Shown here piece by piece: positions 14,401 to 22,208 of a stretch of 52,938 bases of DNA (its first letter is position 1; every line of letters starts with the position of its first letter). The notes under the pieces are model-generated. The model was not told where the DNA came from and ran no database searches. It saw only the letters and a program-made list of their open reading frames with translations. Source of the stretch: an uncultured bacterium (lineage in GTDB: Bacteria > Babelota > Babeliae > Babelales > RVW-14); NCBI GenBank assembly GCA_903825355.1, contig CAIKAH010000048.1, positions 1 through 52,938 of the forward strand, given 5' to 3'. A program made the position numbers and the translations under genes.

Positions 14401-14729
14401 TTTCTTATGCAGATTTTGAAAAAGTGGATATTCGGGTAGGGACCATTATAGCAGCTGAAGTGTTTCCTGAGGCAAAAAAGCCGGCGTATAAACTCATCAT
14501 AGATTTTGGTTCAGAAGTAGGGGCGAAGCGATCGTCAGCTCAGATTACCAAGCATTATATGCCCGCCCAGCTGGTTGGCAAGCAAGTGCTTGCTGTGGTT
14601 AATTTTCCTCCACGCCAAATTGGCCCTTTTATGTCTGAAGTACTTACACTTGCTTTACCTGACGGTGCTGACGGGGTGGTGCTGCTTGCCCCTGATCAAA
14701 AAGTTCCTAATGGCGGCAAGATGTTCTAG
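14397..14729 (+). CDS. csaA: CsaA tRNA-binding / export-related chaperone
   Basis: DFEKVDIRVGTI, SSAQIT and VNFPPRQIGPFMSEVLTL motifs; 110 aa. Confidence 0.92.
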   Translation: MISYADFEKVDIRVGTIIAAEVFPEAKKPAYKLIIDFGSEVGAKRSSAQITKHYMPAQLVGKQVLAVVNFPPRQIGPFMSEVLTLALPDGADGVVLLAPDQKVPNGGKMF

Positions 14730-14817
14730 TTGCGCCTAATTACTTGTTCTAGATCAGGTCATTATGATAACCTGCGGGTATTGTAGTGATCTGGTCATGT
14801 CTTTAAGGGGAAAAGCT

Positions 14818-15036
14818 ATGCAAAACAACAACTCAACCGCGCGATTAGTTAAAGGATTTTTGGCAACTGTTATTGGTGCTATGCTCATCATAGCGAGCTA
14901 TAAAATCATTCTAAAAATGCTGCTGTTCTTTGGCGGGGTTGTTCTTCTGCGCCGTGGGCTGGTAATGCTCAACAGCGCAGAATTTGAACGTATTATCGAT
15001 GGGGTTAAGGGAATTTTCAATAGAATTTTTTCTTAA
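14818..15036 (+). CDS. Small two-helix membrane protein, unknown function
   Basis: ATG 14818 preceded by AAGGGG; hydrophobic 72-aa ORF filling the gap after csaA. Confidence 0.65.
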   Translation: MQNNNSTARLVKGFLATVIGAMLIIASYKIILKMLLFFGGVVLLRRGLVMLNSAEFERIIDGVKGIFNRIFS

Positions 15037-16581
15037 TCAAAAAGAATCTTCATCTATGGTATTGTTTGTAAAATTAACTTTAGCGCCGTAAACATCCTGA
15101 CGACGTGCTTGTGCAGGGATCTTGCATATAGGGCATTTTCTTTGCAACGGCAAGCAAGTATTTAAACAACCACGACAAAAAATATGCTCACAGTTTTTGA
15201 TGACGCCTATCCGAACGTCATCCGCAAACTCTTCAAAACAGATGCCGCATAGATCGACAGGATTCCGTTGAGCAGAAGAAGACTGAACGGCGTGGCGGGC
15301 GGCGCTTGCAATACTGATGGGCGCTGGTGGATAGTTTGATTTTATGGTATTAAACCAGAAATCATATTCAGGAGTGCCACTAGCAAACTTACAGGTGGAT
15401 GTACCAAAATAATCTTCCTTGAAATAACGACCATTCAGACCATAGCGCTGATTGTTAAACTGTTCATAAGGATCATAGTCCCAATGAGGAGTAGTATAAG
15501 TCCAGCCAGTAGTGCTTCCATACGAAGTCTCGTGAGGTTGAGCGGTTGGTTCGATGGTATTAAACCAGAAATCATACTCTGGGGTGCCAGGAGCAAATTT
15601 ACAGGTGTATCGGCCAAAATACTCTTTTTCAGTTTGGTGGCGGCCAGTGCTATAGCGTTGTGCAGTGTACCGTTCGTATGGATCATAGTCCCATTTTGCT
15701 GTGCTAAATGTCCATCCTGCTGTTCCACGCCAATAGGATGTTCTATGAGGCTTTGGAATATGAATAGTGCTTGGTAAGCTGTCGAAATCAGCAAAGCCAA
15801 GTTTTAAGCCAGAATACAGTGCTTGTAGCCCTAAGAGGATGCGGTACATATTCTTCTGCGCTTGGGCCTCAGGTTTATCTGCGGCAGTGGTATAATTGCG
15901 CAGTAATCGCAGCAAAGACATTATAGAACGCGCTCCAAAATTCAGCTTGCGCGGGAATTCATTGGCGTATCCGGCATCACCATGAACTACGCTGCTGAAT
16001 ATACCGCAAACTCCTTCAGCAGCAGCTGAGGCGCGTATTGTTGCTGGCGTTGTCCCAGGTTCTTCAGTGTTTGTAGGAGCGGTAGATGCCTCGCGAGACA
16101 GTTCTTGTTGTGGCTTGCACAGGGCTGCAATATGTTTGCAAAATTGTACCGTGTCTACCCCGGCCCAGATTAAATCAATAGAATGTTCATCTTGTGGGTG
16201 AGATAAAATGTAGCAAAGCTCTTCAATGCAACGAATAAGCGAAATCAGAGCCTTTTTTGCTTCGGCGGGCCTTGAGAAATCATCGCGTAAGCGGTGTTCA
16301 AGCGGTACTAAAGCGGCGCGCAATAATGTGGTTACAAGACCAGTAGCAGCAATCCATTTTGTACTACTTTCTTGAAAGATATATGGGTTTTGCGATTGGT
16401 ATACACAATAGTTATTTTGGCAGGTATGACTTATTTCAACTGGCGTTAATTTTATGCCGCCGTCATGCCATACAAAGCGTGCATTGCCAAACTTGAAAAG
16501 GGTATTTTTGCTATAAGCAGGAGAGTTGTTACTCACTAAGATGATAGAGAGGGCAACAAAAATGCGATGTAAATGTTTCAT
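15037..16581 (-). CDS. Secreted modular protein A: shared N-domain + 2 W/Y/D modules + C3HC4 RING finger (candidate E3 ligase effector)
   Basis: Signal peptide from MKHLHRIF (alternative ATG 16590); RING CGIC-x15-CEH-x2-CRGC-x10-CPIC at 15124-15249. Confidence 0.9.
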   Translation of the reverse strand: MKHLHRIFVALSIILVSNNSPAYSKNTLFKFGNARFVWHDGGIKLTPVEISHTCQNNYCVYQSQNPYIFQESSTKWIAATGLVTTLLRAALVPLEHRLRDDFSRPAEAKKALISLIRCIEELCYILSHPQDEHSIDLIWAGVDTVQFCKHIAALCKPQQELSREASTAPTNTEEPGTTPATIRASAAAEGVCGIFSSVVHGDAGYANEFPRKLNFGARSIMSLLRLLRNYTTAADKPEAQAQKNMYRILLGLQALYSGLKLGFADFDSLPSTIHIPKPHRTSYWRGTAGWTFSTAKWDYDPYERYTAQRYSTGRHQTEKEYFGRYTCKFAPGTPEYDFWFNTIEPTAQPHETSYGSTTGWTYTTPHWDYDPYEQFNNQRYGLNGRYFKEDYFGTSTCKFASGTPEYDFWFNTIKSNYPPAPISIASAARHAVQSSSAQRNPVDLCGICFEEFADDVRIGVIKNCEHIFCRGCLNTCLPLQRKCPICKIPAQARRQDVYGAKVNFTNNTIDEDSF

Positions 16582-18635
16582 GCAGCTCATTTTTTGTCTT
16601 TTGGTTAGGGGGTATCAGATAAGATCTTATTTGCTTGATTGATGACCTTGAATTTTTCAGGATCTCCACCTTTATCAGGGTGATGTTCTTTTGAAAGCTG
16701 CAAATAGGCTTTGCGAATGTCACGTTCAGTAGCGGAGCTAGAAAGGCCAAGATTCTGGAGAGCGTATCCTCTTGCCTTGCTTGGTTCCTTGTCTACTACA
16801 TCGGTTGGAATCATCATACCGACTTTCCACGTTGGTGCAGGAGCCGGAGGGGGGTTGTATCTTGATTGATTGCCGCTTCCGCTCGTATTACCGCCAAAGA
16901 AATTTCTGAAAAAGTTTTCAGAATAATCATCAGGATTTGGCTGGCTGTAGGTGTTAGACTGTGGTCTACTACTTGTAGTATATTTTGGTCTTTCTACATT
17001 ATACCAAAAATCGTATTCAGGCGTTCCTTTAGCGAAATTACAGAATCTCGTGCCAAAGAAATCCGCTCTTGTTTTAGGACTTTTCATGTAAGCATCATAG
17101 GGGTCATGATCCCAATGCGGACAACTAAACGTCCAGCCTGTTGTGCTGCCGTGTCGCGTTTTATGCGGTTCAGTGGGTCTAGGCGGTACTGTAGAGGGCC
17201 GAGATGGCTTATGAGCTCCACAGCATGGACACTGAGAAATCGTGAACCATGTAACCCCACAGCGACATTTCCATTCACTTGCAGAAGAATTTGCGCCGGG
17301 GGCTGAAGGGCCTGATGTTGATCTTGGTGGTGGAGTGTAAGACGTATTTGGTACTGAATATGCGCAACCAAACCCATCACAGAATATATGGGACACTGGA
17401 TTTGCAAACCTAGAACCTGAATTCCGATGGCCACAGCTCGGACAAGTCCAGTCTCGAGGGGTTCGTTTTTGCTCTGCATTAGGTGCAGCTGTTGGATAGT
17501 TTGGTCTTATGGTATTGTACCAGAAGTCATATTCGGGAGTGCCGCTAGCAAAGTTACAAGTATGTTTACCAAAATAATCTTCCTTGAAATAACGACCATT
17601 CAGACCATAGCGTTGATTGTTAAACTGTTCATAAGGATCATAGTCCCAATGAGGAGTAGTATAAGTCCAGCCAGTAGTGCTTCCATACGAAGTCTCGTGA
17701 GGTTGAGCGGTTGGTTTGATGGTATTGTACCAGAAATCATACTCGGGGGTACCATGAGTGAATTTGCAAGTATAGCCACCAAAATACTCTTTTTCAGTTT
17801 GGTAGCGGCCAGAATTATAACGTTGTGCAACGTATCGATCATATGGATCATGATCCCATGTTGCGGCACTAAATGTCCATCCTGCCGTTCCACGCCAATA
17901 GGATGTTCTATGAGGATTTGGAATATGAATAGTGCTTGGTAAGCTGTCGAAATCAGCAAAGCCAAGTTTTAAGCCAGAATACAGTACTTGTAGTCCTAAG
18001 AGGATGCTGTACATATTCTTCTGTGCTTGCTGTTCTGGTTTGGCTGCCGCAGTAGAATAGTTTCGCAATAATCGTAAGAGCGACATAATAGAGCGTGCGC
18101 CAAAATTCAACTTACGCGGGAATTTGTTGGCGTATTTATCATCGCGGTGAACTAAGCTGCTGAATATACCGCAAGCACCTTCGGCAGCAGCTGAGGCGCG
18201 TATTGTTGCTGGCGTTGCCTCAGGTTCTTCAGTGTTTGTAGGAGCGTTAACTGCCTCTGTTGACAGTTCTTGTTGTGGCTTGCACAGCGCTGCAATATGT
18301 TTGCAAAATTGTACAGCGTCTACTCCGGCCCAGATTAAATCAATAGAATGTTCATCCTGTGGGTGAGATAAAATGTAACAGAGCTCTTCAATGCAGCGAA
18401 TAAGCGAAATAATCGCTTTTTTTGCTTCGGCGGGCTTTGAAGTGTCATCACGCAAACGGTGTTCAAGTGGTACCAAGGCAGCGCGCAATAATGTGGTTAC
18501 AAAACCAGTAGCAGCAATCCATGTTGTAGTACTTTCTTCAAAGATATACGGGTCTTCCCAATAGTATTGACAGTTATTTTCGCAGGTATGACTTTTTTCA
18601 ACTGGTGTTACTTTTATCCCCCCGTCATGCCATGC
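15330..18635. repeat. ~1.15-kb direct duplication (about 15330-16470 and 17495-18635), constant offset 2165 bp
   Basis: Anchors 15346/17511, 15537/17702, 15750/17915 and 16201/18366 all differ by 2165. Confidence 0.92.
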
Positions 18636-18743
18636 GACTCGTGCGTTGCCAATGGTAAAAAGGGTATTGGCGCTCAAGGTAGCGGGAAAGCTACTTGTTA
18701 ATAAAAGAGAGAAAATAATAAGAATATGCTTTAAGTGCTTCAT
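16605..18743 (-). CDS. Secreted modular protein B: shared N-domain + 3 modules + two RanBP2-like zinc fingers + C-terminal J-domain
   Basis: Signal peptide; WTCPSCGHRN...C-x4-C and WKCRC...CPCCGAHKP; LGL...DIRKAYLQLSKEHHPDKGG...FKVINQANKIL. Confidence 0.9.
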   Translation of the reverse strand: MKHLKHILIIFSLLLTSSFPATLSANTLFTIGNARVAWHDGGIKVTPVEKSHTCENNCQYYWEDPYIFEESTTTWIAATGFVTTLLRAALVPLEHRLRDDTSKPAEAKKAIISLIRCIEELCYILSHPQDEHSIDLIWAGVDAVQFCKHIAALCKPQQELSTEAVNAPTNTEEPEATPATIRASAAAEGACGIFSSLVHRDDKYANKFPRKLNFGARSIMSLLRLLRNYSTAAAKPEQQAQKNMYSILLGLQVLYSGLKLGFADFDSLPSTIHIPNPHRTSYWRGTAGWTFSAATWDHDPYDRYVAQRYNSGRYQTEKEYFGGYTCKFTHGTPEYDFWYNTIKPTAQPHETSYGSTTGWTYTTPHWDYDPYEQFNNQRYGLNGRYFKEDYFGKHTCNFASGTPEYDFWYNTIRPNYPTAAPNAEQKRTPRDWTCPSCGHRNSGSRFANPVSHIFCDGFGCAYSVPNTSYTPPPRSTSGPSAPGANSSASEWKCRCGVTWFTISQCPCCGAHKPSRPSTVPPRPTEPHKTRHGSTTGWTFSCPHWDHDPYDAYMKSPKTRADFFGTRFCNFAKGTPEYDFWYNVERPKYTTSSRPQSNTYSQPNPDDYSENFFRNFFGGNTSGSGNQSRYNPPPAPAPTWKVGMMIPTDVVDKEPSKARGYALQNLGLSSSATERDIRKAYLQLSKEHHPDKGGDPEKFKVINQANKILSDTP

Positions 18744-18766
18744 GGTGATATTTTGTTAGTTCGCGC

Positions 18767-20230
18767 TTAGGGTTTAGGATGTGTTTTTTTTATCTCTTCC
18801 AAAATAGCGTTTGCTTCACTGATTATTTTGAATTTTTCTGCAAATATAACTTGTTCAGCAGGAGTTGCTTTATCAGGATGGTATTTGAGCGCTAATTTTT
18901 TGTACGCAGTTCGTGCCTCAGCGTCAGTAGCTGTTCTTGGTAGTTCAAGATTTTCGCATGCCATATCACGTACTACCTGATGGGCCCCTTGTACGTTGTT
19001 GTAAACAGCATCAAGTAATTTATCGGGAATCATGGTCCCCGGTTGCCAGCTTGCTGGTCTTTGGTAGGTCCCGAAGTGGTGATAGCCCCCATGATTGGTG
19101 TAATTATTGTCATCTTCATCGCCAGAATCATCAAAATGAAATCCAAATCCGCTGAAAAAATCTCTAAACGGATTGTACCCCCTAGGAGCAGTTCGTACTT
19201 TATTGTACCAAAAGTCATATTCTGGCGTATCATAATCAAATTTGCAGTATTGTTTTCCAAAATATGCTTCAAAATCAGCTTTTGAGTATCCATTAGCAGG
19301 TTCTGGGTGCGCTTGCTTAAAGCGCTCATAAGGATCGTGTGTCCAGCATCGTGATTCAAAGCGCCATCCAGTAGTATCGCCGAAGGAGGTGTGGTGGGGG
19401 TTTCTATTAGCTTCGGTTGGTTCAAAATGAGCAAGGCCAAATTTTACGCTCGAGTACAAAGCTTGTAGGGCCATGAGCGCTACATAGATATTACGCTGTT
19501 TGTTATTTTCTTCTCCTCCTGGAACGTCATTGAAATTACGTAAGAGACGTAAAAATGATATAGCTGAACGTGCACCAAAGTTTAGTTTGCTTGCATTTCG
19601 TAAAATTTCAGTATTAAAATTGGCGTTGTTCTTGCCTGGAATAGTCATAGAAACGGTAGCGCAAATGCCCTCAAGTAAGGCTGATGCTTGGCGAGGAGTG
19701 AGTCCACTAGATTTGATAGACACTGTTTCTGTTGCTTCATTTTCTGGGGTAGGTGAAGCTTTGCATGCAGCTACGACATACTTGCACGTTTGTGCAGCAT
19801 CAACTATAGCCCAGGTAAGGTCTATAAGGTGTTCATCGTTTGGATGCTTGAGTACATAACAAATTTCTTCAACACAGCGCACCAGCGAGATAAAGGCTTT
19901 TTTAATGTTGCCACTGGCTGAATTATCATTAAGCAAACGGCTTTCTAAGGGGACCAGTGCGGCCCGAATGACAGCCGCGGCCATGCCTGCTACCCAAAGG
20001 CGATCAGTAGTTTTGTTCTTGAAAATGTATGGATTATTGTATAAATCATACGGGGTGCTAGCCTTAGTATTACGCGTTATTTTAATGCCGTAATCGTGAA
20101 TGACAAAGCTTGCGCTGCCAATGTTAAAGCCGGCTCCCGTTCCCTTGCCATTAGCTGAAAGGGTTGTAATAGTGAGCGAGAAAACGAGTAATAGATATGC
20201 GAAAAAACGTGATGGTGTCTTTAAATGCAT
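18767..20230 (-). CDS. Secreted modular protein C: shared N-domain + 1 module + C-terminal J-domain
   Basis: Signal peptide; RAALVPLE...ISLVRCVEE...HPNDEH...KLNFGARS shared with A and B; AYKKLALKYHPDK...FKIISEA. Confidence 0.9.
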   Translation of the reverse strand: MHLKTPSRFFAYLLLVFSLTITTLSANGKGTGAGFNIGSASFVIHDYGIKITRNTKASTPYDLYNNPYIFKNKTTDRLWVAGMAAAVIRAALVPLESRLLNDNSASGNIKKAFISLVRCVEEICYVLKHPNDEHLIDLTWAIVDAAQTCKYVVAACKASPTPENEATETVSIKSSGLTPRQASALLEGICATVSMTIPGKNNANFNTEILRNASKLNFGARSAISFLRLLRNFNDVPGGEENNKQRNIYVALMALQALYSSVKFGLAHFEPTEANRNPHHTSFGDTTGWRFESRCWTHDPYERFKQAHPEPANGYSKADFEAYFGKQYCKFDYDTPEYDFWYNKVRTAPRGYNPFRDFFSGFGFHFDDSGDEDDNNYTNHGGYHHFGTYQRPASWQPGTMIPDKLLDAVYNNVQGAHQVVRDMACENLELPRTATDAEARTAYKKLALKYHPDKATPAEQVIFAEKFKIISEANAILEEIKKTHPKP

Positions 20231-20438
20231 GTGTTTTTACCTGAAAAAATAATAATGTTTAGATAGTTGCTAACTGAGTGGAGTAGTTTACCTAAGAAAA
20301 TTAATCAGACAACAAACAGGGATAAATGACGGGAAAAAGGGCATTTCGCTCACTGATGATAAGATTTTAGAATTTAGGAGCGCCATAGCTTTGGTGAATT
20401 ATCTTTACTGGCCATGCCAGCTGATCCTTAGCGAAAGC

Positions 20439-20516
20439 TGGCGTCCCCAGGGGGATTTGAACCCCCGTTTACAGGATGAAAACCTGGTGTCCTGGACCGG
20501 GCTAGACGATGGGGAC
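20439..20516 (-). tRNA. tRNA-Glu(TTC)
   Basis: GTCCCCATCGTCTAG...CCAGG-TTTTCAT-CCTGT...GGTTCAAATCC...GGGGACGCCA cloverleaf with encoded CCA. Confidence 0.95.
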
Positions 20517-20599
20517 GCTACAAAATGTCAGAATTATGAAATGTTGTTCATCCAAACAAAAGGATGACTGCGCCAGGCATAGCTCATGAGAGCGAAGAC

Positions 20600-20675
20600 T
20601 GGTGAGCCGCGTAGGAATCGAACCTACGACCCACAGCTTAAAAGGCTGTTGCTCTACCGACTGAGCTAGCGGCTC
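20600..20675 (-). tRNA. tRNA-Lys(TTT)
   Basis: GAGCCGCTAGCTCAGTCGGTAGAGC-A-ACAGC-CTTTTAA-GCTGT...GGTTCGATTCC...GCGGCTCACCA. Confidence 0.96.
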
Positions 20676-20843
20676 AAAATTTCAAAGCGTGTTTTTAAAA
20701 AAAATCACGTCAACGAAAGAAAGTATATCAGATATTTTTTAAAAAAGAAAAGCGTTTTCTACATATTTTTATACAAATTTAATCTTGTTGCTATTTGGCA
20801 AGACGCGTAGAAACGTTGTTTTAGGGCTTAAAAATAAGGATTG

Positions 20844-22208
20844 CTACCCAAGCAGTTTGCTGCAAACGAAGCAGTAGATCAAAACACCCAGCACGTCCAT
20901 TAGTGTTGCTAAAAAGGGTGCTGCACTATGTGCGGGATCCATATCAAAACGTTCAAGCATGATGGGGATTAATGCTCCTAGTGCCATTGAGGTGACAACG
21001 ATTAAGAAGAGTGAAAGACTAATGATAAAGGCGCTTAGTAATTCGTGGCAGGACCAGTATACCCGGATAAAAGAAACAATACTTAAAACAAACGACATCA
21101 GCATGCCGATATTGACTTCACGTAAAAAGACTTTGTATGCATTGCGCCGTGATATTTCACGTGTAGTGAGGCCGCGAATTACTACGGTTGCAGATTGGTT
21201 TCCTGCATTGCCTCCAGTTCCGATAAGCATGGTTAAAAAGACCGCAATAATCGTATATTTGCCGATTAAGTCATTATATGAAGACAAAATAATACTGGAA
21301 AGGCTTTGTAAGATAAGCAGCCCTACCAACCAGATACCGCGTTGCCAGACTTGTCGCATGATTGGTGTTGCAAAATAACCTTGGTCAACAGGAATAAGAC
21401 CAAACATTTTGTAAACGTCTTCGCTGCCTTCTTCTTTGATAATTTCAAATACATCATCGGCTGTAATAACCCCCAGAAAGTGGTTGTGCTTATCTACGAC
21501 TGGTACGTACAGAAGGCCATAATGATGCATTTGGTTTGCAACATCTTCTTGGTCTTCGTCTACCGATACCACTAGTTCATTCGGGCTCGTTATTTGAACC
21601 AAGTGTGTTTCAGGTTTACTGAGTACTAATTTATCAAGTGTAACGTAGCCAACCAATACGTTATCTTTATTGGTGACATAGATTCGTTGCATAATTGTTT
21701 TAGTATGGCTTAAGCGCTGGAGTAATTCTACGCAGCGACGCACAGTAAACTCTTTGTGGAGCGTAATTACATCGCTGTTCATGCGCCCTCCTGCCGAGCG
21801 CGGATTAAAGCTTAAAAGCGATAAAATTTGATTGCGCTGTTTTGATTGCAACAGCTTTAAATATTTTTCTAAGTCTTCATCCGAGAGAAAATCAAATAAA
21901 TCGGTCAATTCGTCAGCGGGCATGTTTTTAAGCAGTGTAGTTGCCTGATCTAGGTCAAGAGCCACCAGGAGCTTGGCTTGTTGTTGTTTGGGGAGCTTGC
22001 GAAATACTTTTATAGCGATTTCGCGTGCTAATTTTTTAAATAGAGCAAGCTGCCGCTCATCATCCAATTTGTTTGTGAGCATGGCAATATCGGCATAGTG
22101 TTGCGCAAGCAAGATTTGCCATAGGTCTTTGCCTAAGGTTGAGTCTTCGGCTATAACCGCGTCAATGTTGTTTTCTATTTGAAACAATATTTTTTTTATG
22201 GTGAGCAT
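20844..22208 (-). CDS. mgtE: Magnesium transporter MgtE
   Basis: N-terminal helical domain, SAGGRM + CBS pair, GTGGNAGNQS, DPAHSAAPFLATLMDVLG. ATG 22208 preferred over GTG 22226. Confidence 0.95.
   Translation of the reverse strand: MLTIKKILFQIENNIDAVIAEDSTLGKDLWQILLAQHYADIAMLTNKLDDERQLALFKKLAREIAIKVFRKLPKQQQAKLLVALDLDQATTLLKNMPADELTDLFDFLSDEDLEKYLKLLQSKQRNQILSLLSFNPRSAGGRMNSDVITLHKEFTVRRCVELLQRLSHTKTIMQRIYVTNKDNVLVGYVTLDKLVLSKPETHLVQITSPNELVVSVDEDQEDVANQMHHYGLLYVPVVDKHNHFLGVITADDVFEIIKEEGSEDVYKMFGLIPVDQGYFATPIMRQVWQRGIWLVGLLILQSLSSIILSSYNDLIGKYTIIAVFLTMLIGTGGNAGNQSATVVIRGLTTREISRRNAYKVFLREVNIGMLMSFVLSIVSFIRVYWSCHELLSAFIISLSLFLIVVTSMALGALIPIMLERFDMDPAHSAAPFLATLMDVLGVLIYCFVCSKLLG

Follow-up and report, generated by a model that had tools for sequence, protein, structure and literature searches.

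Organization of the locus and support for the array

The window (the entire stretch of DNA analysed, 52,938 nucleotides) carries three tandem, co-oriented genes on the minus strand, designated C, B, and A from high to low coordinates, which in the ORF listing are separated by gaps of only 23 bp (C-B; 18744-18766) and 14 bp (B-A; 16591-16604). The initial annotation had described three tandem co-oriented paralogues with gaps of less than 25 bp, and these ORFs and gaps bear it out. When C was used as a query against the window's own genome, B and A were recovered at E 2.4e-77 and E 1.7e-75, respectively, while alignment gave 75% identity of A to B and 38% identity of A to C; judged by sequence similarity, the three genes are paralogues far beyond chance.

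All features described below lie on the minus strand. Gene C (P0003, 487 aa; 18767..20230), delineated by its ORF, a Pfam DnaJ match of 46.4 bits, and alignment, consists of a signal-peptide-like start (residues 1-27; 20150..20230; Kyte-Doolittle peak of 1.64 at residue 9, heuristic positive), an N-domain (residues 28-276; 19403..20149; family HMM E 4.1e-61), one module rich in W, Y, and D (residues 279-346; 19193..19396; aligned with six other copies), an Asp/Asn/Gly-rich linker, and a C-terminal J domain (residues 428-482, HPD at 451; 18785..18949). Gene B (P0002, 712 aa; 16605..18743), defined by its ORF, Pfam, alignment, and module search, has a signal-peptide-like start (residues 1-24; 18672..18743; Kyte-Doolittle peak of 1.87, heuristic), an N-domain 85-89% identical to that of A (residues 25-271; 17931..18671), two modules located by module search (residues 278-343; 17715..17912, and residues 349-413; 17505..17699), two Cys4 clusters, a third module (residues 527-585; 16989..17165; HMM domain E 5.1e-24), a linker, and a C-terminal J domain (residues 665-710, HPD at 688; 16614..16751). 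Gene A (P0001, 517 aa; 15037..16590; the database copy P0007 starts at Met4) comprises a signal-peptide-like start (residues 1-27; 16510..16590; hydropathy and heuristic), an N-domain (residues 28-275; 15766..16509; family HMM), two modules found by module search (residues 282-347; 15550..15747, and residues 353-417; 15340..15534), a C3HC4 RING finger (residues 448-489; 15124..15249; Pfam, regular expression, and PDB matches), and a conserved post-RING tail (15040..15123) containing V-N-F-T-N-N-T, which by inspection recurs in the RING-type relatives P0010 and P0019. Just upstream of gene C, tRNA-Glu(UUC) (20439..20516, minus strand) marks the conserved site of the array, with tRNA-Lys(UUU) (20600..20675, minus strand) upstream of it. 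The order mgtE, tRNA-Lys, tRNA-Glu, array is the same in two relative genomes (G127 and G128), and the array site is conserved within the genus.

Between A and B, DNA identity is 87% across 1184 nt, with a 103-nt identical run that lies mostly inside B module 2. In another assembly, P0008 is a chimera of the B N-terminus and the A C-terminus; in one Logan contig, A runs into B through a stretch of 32 shared letters; and an A-like gene of a relative (P0011) loses its RING pattern midway. Assembly errors, or decaying duplicates without a selected function, might leave such marks, but as an account of the array we consider this extremely improbable given the remaining evidence. Both the A-B and the B-C junction are bridged by Logan contigs from two studies (one of the runs possibly being the window's own source), and B's unique middle part is covered without differences in independent Logan contigs, again from two studies. 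The word length of Logan contigs is 31, so the 32-letter joint is probably a collapse. An assembly error confined to this contig does not account for the tandem order. In addition to the conserved site, all three frames are open, and comparison of A with B gives dN/dS values of 0.205 (N-domain) and 0.177 (modules); at about 0.2, A and B are under purifying selection. Among the runs listed for the array sequence there was no RNA run.

Shared N-terminal parts and divergent C-termini

Signal-peptide-like starts were called from Kyte-Doolittle hydropathy peaks and a crude home-made heuristic rather than a dedicated predictor, and since the heuristic flags 423 of 905 ORFs as signal-peptide- or transmembrane-like, a positive call is weakly discriminating. 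At this level of discrimination, a signal-peptide-like start is called in all three of A, B, and C, to which a signal peptide had previously been ascribed in common. The ~250-aa domain likewise ascribed to each is evident in the alignment, which contains all of the strings quoted for it (RAALVPLE.RL, ISL.RC.EE.CY.L.HP.DEH.IDL.WA.VD, and KLNFGARS..S.LRLLRN). This N-domain has no Pfam, NCBIfam, or PDB match (A's copy lacks a Pfam hit even at E<=10, and a profile search of PDB returned 0 hits), and the ESM Atlas yielded no usable hit. The second shared element, the W/Y/D-rich module, is ~65 aa in size, and module search reproduced the expected 2, 3, and 1 copies in A, B, and C, respectively. The search itself placed these copies at residues 282-344 and 353-414 of A, residues 278-340, 349-410, and 527-582 of B, and residues 279-343 of C. 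To judge from sequence comparison, both the N-domain and the module are previously undescribed. For these two parts the claim of an undescribed architecture stands; for the design principle it does not, as this is already in print (PMC4209131, PMC4617103).

At the C-terminus of A, three Pfam profiles score above their cut-offs (PF14634, 35.2 bits against 27.9; PF13639, 33.0 against 27.3; PF00097, 26.5 against 21), and all eight zinc ligands occur in C3HC4 order with canonical spacing (C-x2-C-x15-C-x-H-x2-C-x2-C-x10-C-x2-C), in agreement with the complete RING first proposed. Contact with E2 enzymes is associated with an aliphatic residue preceding the second Cys and a basic one following the last; by inspection, A has both (C-G-I-C and C-P-I-C-K). 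The best PDB matches of this RING are RNF4 (2e-9), RNF24, and RING2.

B and C carry HPD J domains, as had also been proposed, with PF00226 scores of 47.8 and 46.4 bits, respectively (cut-off 27.8), and an intact HPD, the tripeptide located between helices II and III, that reads HPDK at B 688 and C 451; a relative, P0012, has HTD in place of HPD. Of the 63 profile positions, the match in B extends to 55 and that in C to 58, with only 2-5 further residues before the proteins terminate, so helix IV is missing and neither protein has the four helices of a full J domain. E. coli DnaJ and eukaryotic J proteins are about equally good matches to B's J tail. The type I DnaJ chaperones (TIGR02349) are defined by a full-length match that takes in the G/F region, the CxxCxGxG zinc domain, and the C-terminal domains; B and C match this model in the J part alone, with 40.4 and 40.5 bits where the cut-off is 377.2, and the assignment was rejected. 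Assignment to DjlA (NF006948) was likewise rejected, on weak local matches (20.8 and 19.1 bits; cut-off 162).

The middle part of B contains two W-x-C...C Cys4 clusters, W-x-C-x2-C-x17-C-x4-C (residues 432-460; 17364..17450) and W-x-C-x-C-x9-C-x-C-C (residues 491-508; 17220..17273), both recognised by pattern. The initial annotation had called them two RanBP2-like zinc fingers; the clusters are there, but the RanBP2 label falls below threshold, with PF00641 giving 13.2 bits for cluster 1 against a cut-off of 27 and no Pfam hit at E<=1 when residues 415-524, which span both clusters, were scanned alone. The Cys spacing also departs from the RanBP2 consensus, W-x-C-x2-4-C-x3-N-x6-C-x2-C.

Distribution of the family and exchange of outputs

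The N-domain family is tiny, with 23 hits at E<=0.001 among 1,835,955,588 representatives. In a survey of the phylum, matches were found in 8 of 261 genomes, the window's own (G000) included. All 8 belong to a single family (f1), in which 7 of the 34 other genomes are positive, and the counts by genus are 3/3 (g1), 1/2 (g13), and 3/4 (g19). Family genes also lie in tandem arrays in the relatives G155, G154, G153, G143, and G127. In place of the W/Y/D modules of A, B, and C, the spacers of relatives consist of GYD repeats, proline-rich stretches, or coiled coils.

Outputs were assigned for 44 members: 17 have the canonical RING pattern, 2 a variant RING, 10 a J domain, and 1 three FFAT-like motifs, the remaining 14 ending in something else or nothing. 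A Pfam scan of 37 members matched 16 Pfam families, with no LRR among them. The additional outputs that had been predicted (F-box, U-box, and BTB) were found in none of these 37 members; an FFAT-like output was found instead. FFAT motifs, which bind eukaryotic VAP (PMC7610837), are described as having the core E1-F2-F3-D4-A5-x6-E7, in which position 2 is F or Y and which follows an acidic tract (PMC7610837, PMC6083021). In the G143 member (L023:5410-6495), an acidic tract leading into [LF]IFYDAPD occurs three times. Its cores, I-F-Y-D-A-P-D, are each preceded by 6-10 Asp/Glu and qualify as putative FFAT motifs, positions 2, 4, and 5 being identical to the consensus and positions 3 and 7 conservative. 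In the window's genome the FFAT-like pattern occurs in 0 of 1953 six-frame segments, and in none of A, B, and C.

On the N-domain tree, A (RING) and B (J) are sisters with SH-aLRT support of 99-100, and the distribution of J versus non-J outputs over its 40 rows, among which P0040, P0041, and P0042 were not placed, requires at least 4 changes. P0004 is of mixed type: its N-domain resembles that of C (76% identical to C, 44% to B), and its J tail that of B (76% identical to B, 42% to C). By eye, the J-ended P0042 and the RING-ended P0040 and P0041 share an N-terminal YYEFKLRND...FKRA motif, and overall at least three clades have RING and J outputs in alternation on near-identical chassis. The proposal of a common chassis with exchangeable C-terminal outputs is upheld by the output mix of the 44 members, the repeated J/non-J changes, and P0004. 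Since relatives show the same mix-and-match design, it probably serves as a kit for directing host machinery.

The principle of exchanging outputs resembles that of NEX1a/NEX1b of Neochlamydia (Chlamydiae), an obligate intracellular symbiont of amoebae, in which F-box or RING/U-box domains are attached to one LRR repeat chassis, with tandem arrays and purifying selection (PMC4209131). Both of the latter features are shared by the present family, whereas NEX1 has an N-terminal output, an LRR chassis, and type III secretion in place of a C-terminal output and a new domain. Furthermore, the NEX1 alternatives both address the ubiquitin pathway, while those of the A/B/C family would address two or three host systems (ubiquitin, Hsp70, and possibly VAP). 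NEX1-type membership was rejected, as neither LRR nor F-box families are among the Pfam matches of the 37 members and the outputs are C-terminal.

Proposed host-directed action and alternative readings

The window's genome (1,388,828 bases, 95.5% complete) is that of a protist-dependent Candidatus Dependentiae; among the proteins of relatives, one is labelled Candidatus Dependentiae and others Candidatus Babeliales. RING Pfam profiles match at 8 places in it, 7 of them above cut-off, versus 0 of 14 control prokaryote genomes; the J domain profile matches in 12 of the 14 controls. The genome's other RING ORFs with a length of 200 aa or more, five in number, all have signal-peptide-like starts, and in its other RINGs the domain directly follows the signal peptide with no later transmembrane segment. 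One other J ORF has a signal-peptide-like start, and the housekeeping DnaJ does not. Neither E2 nor ubiquitin was matched in the window's genome, although the E2 search also matched 0 of the 14 controls, which leaves its sensitivity unproven and makes the negative for E2 weak. The type IV marker VirB4 and the type III marker FHIPEP were not found in this genome; together with its three secretins, this agrees with reports of Sec plus type II secretion in the phylum (PMC4776705) and of signal peptides on 44% of the CDS of Chromulinavorax (PMC6561590). The earlier suggestion that the proteins act in a host cell thus gains indirect support from the RING contrast with the controls, the missing E2 and ubiquitin genes, the FFAT-like output, and the signal-peptide-like starts combined with secretins.

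We favour, with a probability of about 0.6, the reading that A, B, and C are Sec-exported, host-directed adaptors encoded by a tandem array of a lineage-restricted effector family. A Sec-type signal peptide would take the protein out of the bacterial cytoplasm, and the N-domain (~200-250 aa) would set its location at a membrane, an organelle, or the bacterial surface. Beyond a variable spacer, represented in A, B, and C by the W/Y/D modules, the C-terminal output would recruit one host machine upon arrival in the host cytosol: ubiquitin-charged E2 in the case of RING, Hsp70 in the case of an HPD J domain, and the ER protein VAP in the case of the FFAT-like motifs of the one relative. Several points count against this explanation. 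No type III or type IV marker was found that would account for the passage of a Sec or type II substrate into the host cytosol. J domains also work with bacterial DnaK, B's tail matches E. coli DnaJ as noted above, and helix IV is absent from both J domains.

The closest precedent for B and C is HopI1, a type III effector of Pseudomonas syringae described as running from an N-terminus of unknown nature through repeats to a C-terminal J domain (PMC4617103). This layout recurs in B and C, whose HPD is intact, the resemblance being architectural only: HopI1 is a type III substrate with P/Q-rich repeats, whereas A, B, and C have Sec-type signal-peptide-like starts and W/Y/D modules, in a genome in which FHIPEP was not found. 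To our knowledge, HopI1 has no RING-ended paralogue. For A, the comparison is with SneRING of Simkania negevensis, a RING-type E3 from an intracellular bacterium without its own ubiquitin system, active with UbcH5b and UBE2T (PMC12591485), and with other bacterial RING/U-box effectors such as LubX. A's RING is C-terminal with all eight canonical ligands, and A and SneRING show no relation outside the RING.

The last helix of the N-domain, just ahead of the output, is transmembrane-grade in many distant members (19-residue Kyte-Doolittle means of 1.8-2.5, maximum 2.47) and counts against a purely soluble adaptor. Placed downstream of a cleaved signal peptide, a helix of this kind would normally halt transfer and anchor the protein in the bacterial inner membrane, so that RING or J stays in the bacterial cytoplasm. 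The family could accordingly consist of envelope proteins acting inside the bacterium, with type I inner-membrane topology and a periplasmic N-domain, in which J recruits DnaK to the membrane as DjlA does and RING is a plain zinc-binding interaction module. The near-universal occurrence of J domains in the controls and the weak local DjlA matches are compatible with this, but we regard it as quite unlikely: the same helix in A, B, and C reaches only 1.2-1.4, below the usual transmembrane threshold of 1.6 (beyond the signal peptide, values of at least 1.5 occur only as single 19-residue windows of 1.5-1.6), the DjlA model scores far below its cut-off, RING is absent from the controls and E2 and ubiquitin went unmatched in the genome, and the genome's other RINGs have no later transmembrane segment. 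The FFAT-like motifs, moreover, have only a eukaryotic partner as described (PMC7610837). DjlA itself is similar in combining an N-terminal membrane-targeting segment with a C-terminal J domain and differs in that the N-terminus of B and C has the form of a cleavable signal peptide. We know of no RING-ended paralogues of DjlA.

Alternatively, the N-domain may serve delivery rather than targeting, being a helical bundle with a buried hydrophobic helix that mediates export across the outer membrane or insertion into a host-derived membrane, and carries or anchors whichever C-terminal domain is attached. The outputs would again act in the host, and the targets of A, B, and C might differ. This logic is that of polymorphic toxins and translocation domains such as the diphtheria toxin T domain, and would agree with a conserved N-terminus, variable C-termini, tandem paralogues, and C-terminal replacement by recombination, as well as with the hydrophobic last helix. 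The conserved His/Asp/Glu cluster HP.DEH could, speculatively, be a pH switch, yet it is missing from the g19 branch, and by the PDB, Pfam (E<=10), and ESM Atlas searches the N-domain is unlike any known translocation or trafficking domain. Overall, we consider delivery possible if unlikely.

A further point for the delivery reading is that an FFAT output would be most sensibly placed on a protein anchored in a membrane, like IncV of Chlamydia trachomatis, whose C-terminal tail is reported to mimic FFAT motifs and recruit VAP (PMC6083021). The G143 member, with its three FFAT-like cores, is comparable; it has long acidic tracts and the family N-domain, while IncV lacks acidic tracts and is anchored by the Inc hydrophobic domain. 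Chlamydial Inc proteins have a bilobed hydrophobic domain of about 40-60 residues, and Inc membership was rejected for A, B, and C, in which no bilobed hydrophobic segment is present.

A bolder reading, which we rate as distinctly improbable, is that the N-domain is a new self-inserting membrane module and that the paralogues of an array cooperate as a synthetic proteostasis platform on a host-facing membrane. Sec and a type II-like secretin alone would suffice, the C-terminus being planted in the host cytosol, where the RING member would bring E2~ubiquitin and the J member Hsp70, and the FFAT member of G143 would tether the platform to the ER via VAP. It would explain why, in distant lineages, J and zinc-finger (RING or RING-like) versions are repeatedly kept next to each other, as in G000, in G143, and in the P0040/P0041/P0042 subfamily. 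If true, it would be a bacterial counterpart of Hsp70-coupled ubiquitin triage and would give membrane effectors a secretion-system-independent route.

Distant members also recall the eukaryotic RNF13, RNF24, ZNRF3, and RMR ligases in their order of signal peptide, N-terminal domain, hydrophobic helix, and RING, the N-domain being unrelated to PA or other known ectodomains of eukaryotic RING ligases. The PDB matches of A include RNF24, RNF13, ZNRF3, and Arabidopsis AT5G66160 (7bvw), which we take to be an RMR. These matches involve the RING only, with RNF4 the best, and so indicate no specific affinity to this group.

Architecture and integrity of the gene array

The array lies on the minus strand and comprises gene C (18767-20230, 487 aa), gene B (16605-18743, 712 aa), and gene A (15037-16590, 517 aa), with intergenic gaps of 23 bp (C-B) and 14 bp (B-A). 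When C was used as a query against its own genome, B and A were retrieved at E-values of 2.4e-77 and 1.7e-75, respectively, by which measure the three are clear paralogues, as the initial annotation had proposed in describing tandem, co-oriented copies less than 25 bp apart. Overall identity is 75% between A and B and 38% between A and C, and no further family copy was found in this genome. Upstream of C lie tRNA-Glu(UUC) (20439-20516, minus), tRNA-Lys(UUU) (20600-20675, minus), and, beyond both, mgtE. Very high Logan contig depth at 20492-20705 in sequencing run X2 overlaps both tRNA genes, with tRNA-Lys wholly inside. At the opposite end, an ORF of 90 aa that is hydrophobic in its middle part (14764-15036, plus) abuts the stop codon of A, giving convergent genes with zero spacer. 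A scan of 14700-21000 yielded 13 promoter-like and 5 terminator-like sites and was uninformative, since shuffled sequence gave 12.3 and 5.8; no RNA run was present among the listed holders of the window sequence.

Each protein opens with a hydrophobic, signal-peptide-like segment (based on Kyte-Doolittle peaks and a home-made heuristic), followed by a conserved domain of ~250 aa (the N-domain, or chassis) and by two (A), three (B), or one (C) copies of a module of 60-66 aa rich in W, Y, F, D, and G, with the pattern H-x-T-S-[YF]-G-x-T-x-G-W ... W-D-[HY]-D-P-Y ... [YF]-F-G-x3-C-x-F-x3-T-P-E-Y-D-F-W-[YF]-N. These module counts agree with those first described, and all motif strings quoted previously were recovered in the A/B/C alignment. 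The C-terminus of A is, as first described, a complete C3HC4 RING, which exceeds Pfam thresholds with 8 of 8 ligands present and whose closest solved structures are RNF4, RNF24, and RING2. The J domains at the C-termini of B and C also pass Pfam (47.8 and 46.4 bits, respectively) and retain the expected HPD; helix IV is absent from both, since their matches end at position 55-58 of the 63-position profile. B additionally carries two Cys4 clusters. Their assignment to RanBP2 is not established: the first scores 13.2 bits against a cut-off of 27, and the stretch containing both, when scanned alone, matched no Pfam family at E<=1. The segment W-x-x-G-x-[MI]-I-x-x-[DE]-x-[VIL] precedes the J domain in B (residues 638-650), in C (residues 393-405), and in J-type relatives of the same clade (genus g1), and is not present before the J domain of the more distant genome G143, which suggests that one J-tail cassette serves the genus and that G143 gained its J domain independently.

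Because A and B are 87% identical at the DNA level across 1184 nt, including a 103-nt identical run, assembly collapse or chimerism was suspected. The suspicion is sharpened by P0008, a 513-aa ORF on a 4204-base contig of another assembly, which joins the N-terminus of B through module 2 to the C-terminus of A with its RING; this fusion reflects either real unequal recombination or short-word assembly collapse across the 103-nt run. An array that is merely an assembly artefact, or one in decay, is nevertheless highly improbable. Two studies supplied Logan contigs that span the A-B junction (X2 record 11, X3 record 20, X4 record 27) and the B-C junction (X1 record 5, X2 record 15), and a 731-nt contig (X2 record 13) covers the unique middle of B with zero differences; one of these runs may be the source of the window itself. 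Parts of the stretch are uncovered in single runs, from which no conclusion is drawn. The holders with the largest share of the window sequence are lake-water and estuary metagenomes. Furthermore, dN/dS between A and B is 0.205 for the N-domain and 0.177 for the modules, which indicates that both copies are under purifying selection in this frame. A joint in run X3 (record 19) connecting 18324 to 16160, where A is joined to B over 32 shared letters, was read as a word-length collapse and not as a sign of recombination.

Distribution of the chassis and module

Neither chassis nor module matched any database entry, and to that extent the earlier judgement of an undescribed system holds. The N-domain had no match in Pfam (E<=10), NCBIfam, or a PDB profile search, and no usable hit in the ESM Atlas; N-domain and module together returned zero PDB matches at E<=5, the module pair had no usable ESM Atlas match, and in NCBIfam the matches of A, B, and C were confined to fragments of their J and RING domains. 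The sole Pfam match of the module pair at E<=10, CdiI_4 at 12.2 bits, was discarded as noise. With a profile of N-domain plus module, 1.84 billion representatives yielded no more than 23 proteins at E<=0.001; the module part matched only P0008 and P0011, both close relatives of A and B, so at that sensitivity the module looks genus-specific. Word-index searches with a second alignment (A5), in which 8000 candidates were scored each, gave 4 and 7 matches and are not exhaustive. P0011 (188 aa, Candidatus Dependentiae) is an A-like fragment with one module whose RING pattern breaks after the first Cys pair, the rest appearing frame-shifted; a sequencing error or a pseudogene in this relative may be the cause. 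In the J-type proteins P0012, P0015, and P0009, the W/Y/D modules are replaced by long G-[YF]-[DN]-x-x-G-[YF]-[DN] / H-R-N-G-T-x-[YFK]-D-D repeats (period about 27 aa in P0015) for which no Pfam match was found, and HMM matches between these repeats and the W/Y/D module were insignificant (i-Evalue 0.5-5). The J domain of P0012 has HTD in place of HPD.

In the databases, the protein closest to C bears the label 'J domain-containing protein [Candidatus Dependentiae bacterium]', and more distant members are labelled Candidatus Babeliales. For a middle clade of the family (P0014, P0016, P0018, P0019), scans of genome contigs with P0019 or P0014 alone gave no match. Across the phylum, 8 of 261 genomes match, including that of the window, and all fall in one family (f1), where 7 of 34 other genomes are positive (3/3 in genus g1, 1/2 in g13, and 3/4 in g19). 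Tandem arrangement recurs, with six family ORFs in the fetched loci of G155, five in G154, four each in G153 and G143, and two in G127. A model built without G143 sequences recovered 4 of 4 G143 members over nearly the whole domain (E 1e-14 to 1e-16). Within the genus the site is constant (mgtE, tRNA-Lys, tRNA-Glu, array, in the same order in two other species, G127 and G128) and the content varies: J, ZnF-J, and RING in the window's genome, J and J before the contig end in G127, and a single RING gene in G128.

Exchange of C-terminal outputs

We examined 44 distinct members, 37 from the family alignment (A4) plus 3 and 4 from later searches. A canonical RING pattern occurs in 17 of the 44 (by regular expression, with P0040 and P0041 read by eye); Pfam zf-RING_2 was confirmed in 12 of the 37 scanned, and P0040 and P0041 have no precomputed RING match. 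Two more (P0016 and P0018, by eye) carry a variant RING. J domains are present in 10 members: 8 of 37 by Pfam, the G143 protein at L023:6523-7722 (52.5 bits), and P0042 (precomputed Pfam entry). One member has three FFAT-like motifs, and the remaining 14 end in coiled coils, acidic tails, other Cys/His modules, or nothing. The further outputs that had been anticipated, F-box, U-box, and BTB, were absent from the 37 members scanned with Pfam, as was LRR.

Output type and position on the chassis tree, as judged from aligned N-domains, are not congruent. A ends in a RING and B in a J domain, yet the two are sisters (SH-aLRT 99-100) whose N-domains share 85-89% identity; four J-type proteins, in turn, have the RING-ended P0010 as their sister. 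On the 40-row N-domain tree, a minimum of 4 changes is needed to explain J versus non-J, and 13 to explain the full set of output states. Outside that tree, P0042 (J) and the RING-ended P0040 and P0041 have in common an N-terminal YYEFKLRND...FKRA motif, identified by eye. The four-gene array of G143 (L023, contig C17 of that genome, 2699-7725) forms one clade (SH-aLRT 100), yet has four different tails: (i) a Cys/His module, R-V-R-[IV]-F-x-C-x-H ... C-x2-C, (ii) two Cys/His modules and a poly-Asp acidic tail, (iii) a triple FFAT-like tail, and (iv) a Cys/His module and a J domain. For the Cys/His module, no Pfam family exceeded its threshold (zf-RING_11 gave 15.4 bits). By pairwise identity, P0004 is a direct trace of tail exchange: its N-domain is 76% identical to that of C and 44% to that of B, whereas its J tail is 76% identical to that of B and 42% to that of C. 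P0005 corresponds to P0004 without its module.

Identity to other RING and J domains of the genome is only 28-43% for the RING of A and for the J tails of B and C, with housekeeping DnaJ about as close; at such identities no in-genome donor could be named. The J domain of G143 is no nearer to the J tails of genus g1 than to DnaJ.

Predicted host-directed role and genome setting

Architecture, distribution, exchange, and selection are shown here, and they bear out one part of the initial interpretation, a common chassis with exchangeable outputs. Its other part, that the chassis steers host targets to ubiquitylation or Hsp70, depends on export, delivery, RING and J activity, and the role of the N-domain, all of which are predicted steps of the following proposal. 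We consider it probable (roughly 0.6) that the family consists of Sec-exported, host-directed adaptors. Export would proceed via Sec, the N-domain would fix location, the repeats would act as spacers or extra contacts, and the C-terminal domain would recruit one host machine, namely E2~ubiquitin for the RING, Hsp70 for the J domain, and the ER protein VAP for the FFAT-like motifs of the G143 relative. The last of these tails, in the protein at L023:5410-6495, presents I-F-Y-D-A-P-D three times behind long acidic tracts, recurs in another database entry (P0037), and is the strongest single pointer to an orientation facing the host cytosol. Under the same criteria, the pattern occurred in 0 of 1953 six-frame segments of the window's genome. 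In PMC7610837 and PMC6083021, the FFAT core is given as E-F-F-D-A-x-E with F or Y obligatory at position 2, which the G143 tail fits; all known partners of the motif are eukaryotic.

Several observations count against host-directed action. The last N-domain helix is of transmembrane-grade hydrophobicity in many distant members (e.g. 2.47 in P0029 and 2.21 in P0022), and such a helix following a cleaved signal peptide would ordinarily be an inner-membrane anchor, leaving the output inside the bacterium. In addition, delivery to the host cytosol would need a route other than type III/IV secretion, and J domains also serve DnaK. Because of these objections we retain three alternatives, the artefact or decay already discussed and two more. 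That the N-domain is itself a delivery or membrane-insertion module is possible, if rather unlikely. A DjlA-like envelope role, which would draw on both the anchoring helix and the service of J domains to DnaK, is improbable, as the same helix in A, B, and C reaches only 1.2-1.4.

Single parts of the adaptors we favour are of known kinds. HopI1 has an unknown N-terminus, repeats, and a C-terminal J domain in the same order and recruits Hsp70 (PMC4617103); SneRING, from a chlamydia-like bacterium, is an active E3 (PMC12591485); in NEX1a/NEX1b, whose tandemly arrayed genes are under purifying selection, a common LRR chassis bears either an F-box or a RING/U-box (PMC4209131); and IncV mimics FFAT (PMC6083021). 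What is new is (i) the chassis and W/Y/D module, (ii) the C-terminal position of the outputs and a putative Sec-type leader in a phylum without type III/IV secretion, and (iii) the repeated alternation of outputs predicted to feed different host systems. No literature linking Dependentiae with RING or J-domain effectors was found among main texts; in those of the two genomic papers PMC6561590 and PMC4776705, the word RING is absent from both and DnaJ from one, and their supplementary tables may name such proteins in other Dependentiae.

The N-domain and the W/Y/D module each define a new protein family, and the proteins that carry them offer a natural experiment in which a single chassis has been recombined repeatedly with RING, J, and FFAT-like outputs; on account of this recombination, the chassis provides a handle on the targets of the parasite. 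The family also lends itself to testing how a bacterium that lacks type III/IV secretion gets eukaryote-type domains into its host. Should the outputs prove active, pathogen control over host proteostasis would have a compact model here, with one address domain delivering both a RING E3 and an Hsp70 co-chaperone.

Dependentiae are widespread, almost uncultured, host-dependent parasites of protists, and to our knowledge there has been almost no work on their effectors. Contig C48, which is the window, is one of 57 in a 1.39 Mb assembly that is 95.5% complete, and the rest of this genome points the same way as host-directed action. Three secretins were found, with no VirB4 or FHIPEP, and among the 905 ORFs that reach 200 aa, 423 are signal-peptide- or TM-like by the home-made heuristic. 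Published work reports Sec and type II components with two copies of gspD in Dependentiae (PMC4776705), and, in Chromulinavorax, signal peptides on 44% of CDS and outer-membrane vesicles as a proposed effector route (PMC6561590). No E2 or ubiquitin gene was found in the window's genome, a weak negative for E2 because that search was silent in all control genomes too. The J profile matches 7 places and the RING profile 8 (7 over the cut-off), the latter with 0 matches in 14 control prokaryotes. The seven further RING ORFs (contigs C33, C52, C21, C32, C4, C29, and C20) mostly have a signal-peptide-like start (positive by heuristic in 5/5 of those of at least 200 aa), a RING directly after, and then ankyrin-like repeats, called by eye, or RanBP-like fingers; the 413-aa protein on C4 has three W-x-C-x2-C fingers (RanBP-like 15.5 bits, below threshold). 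Finally, a 3278-aa ORF (contig C2, about 46309-56142, plus; L029 1310-10999) contains a J domain (46.2 bits) and, near its C-terminus, a UCH/USP-type deubiquitinase domain (38.5 bits); by these Pfam matches, Hsp70 and ubiquitin functions are combined in one more protein of the genome.
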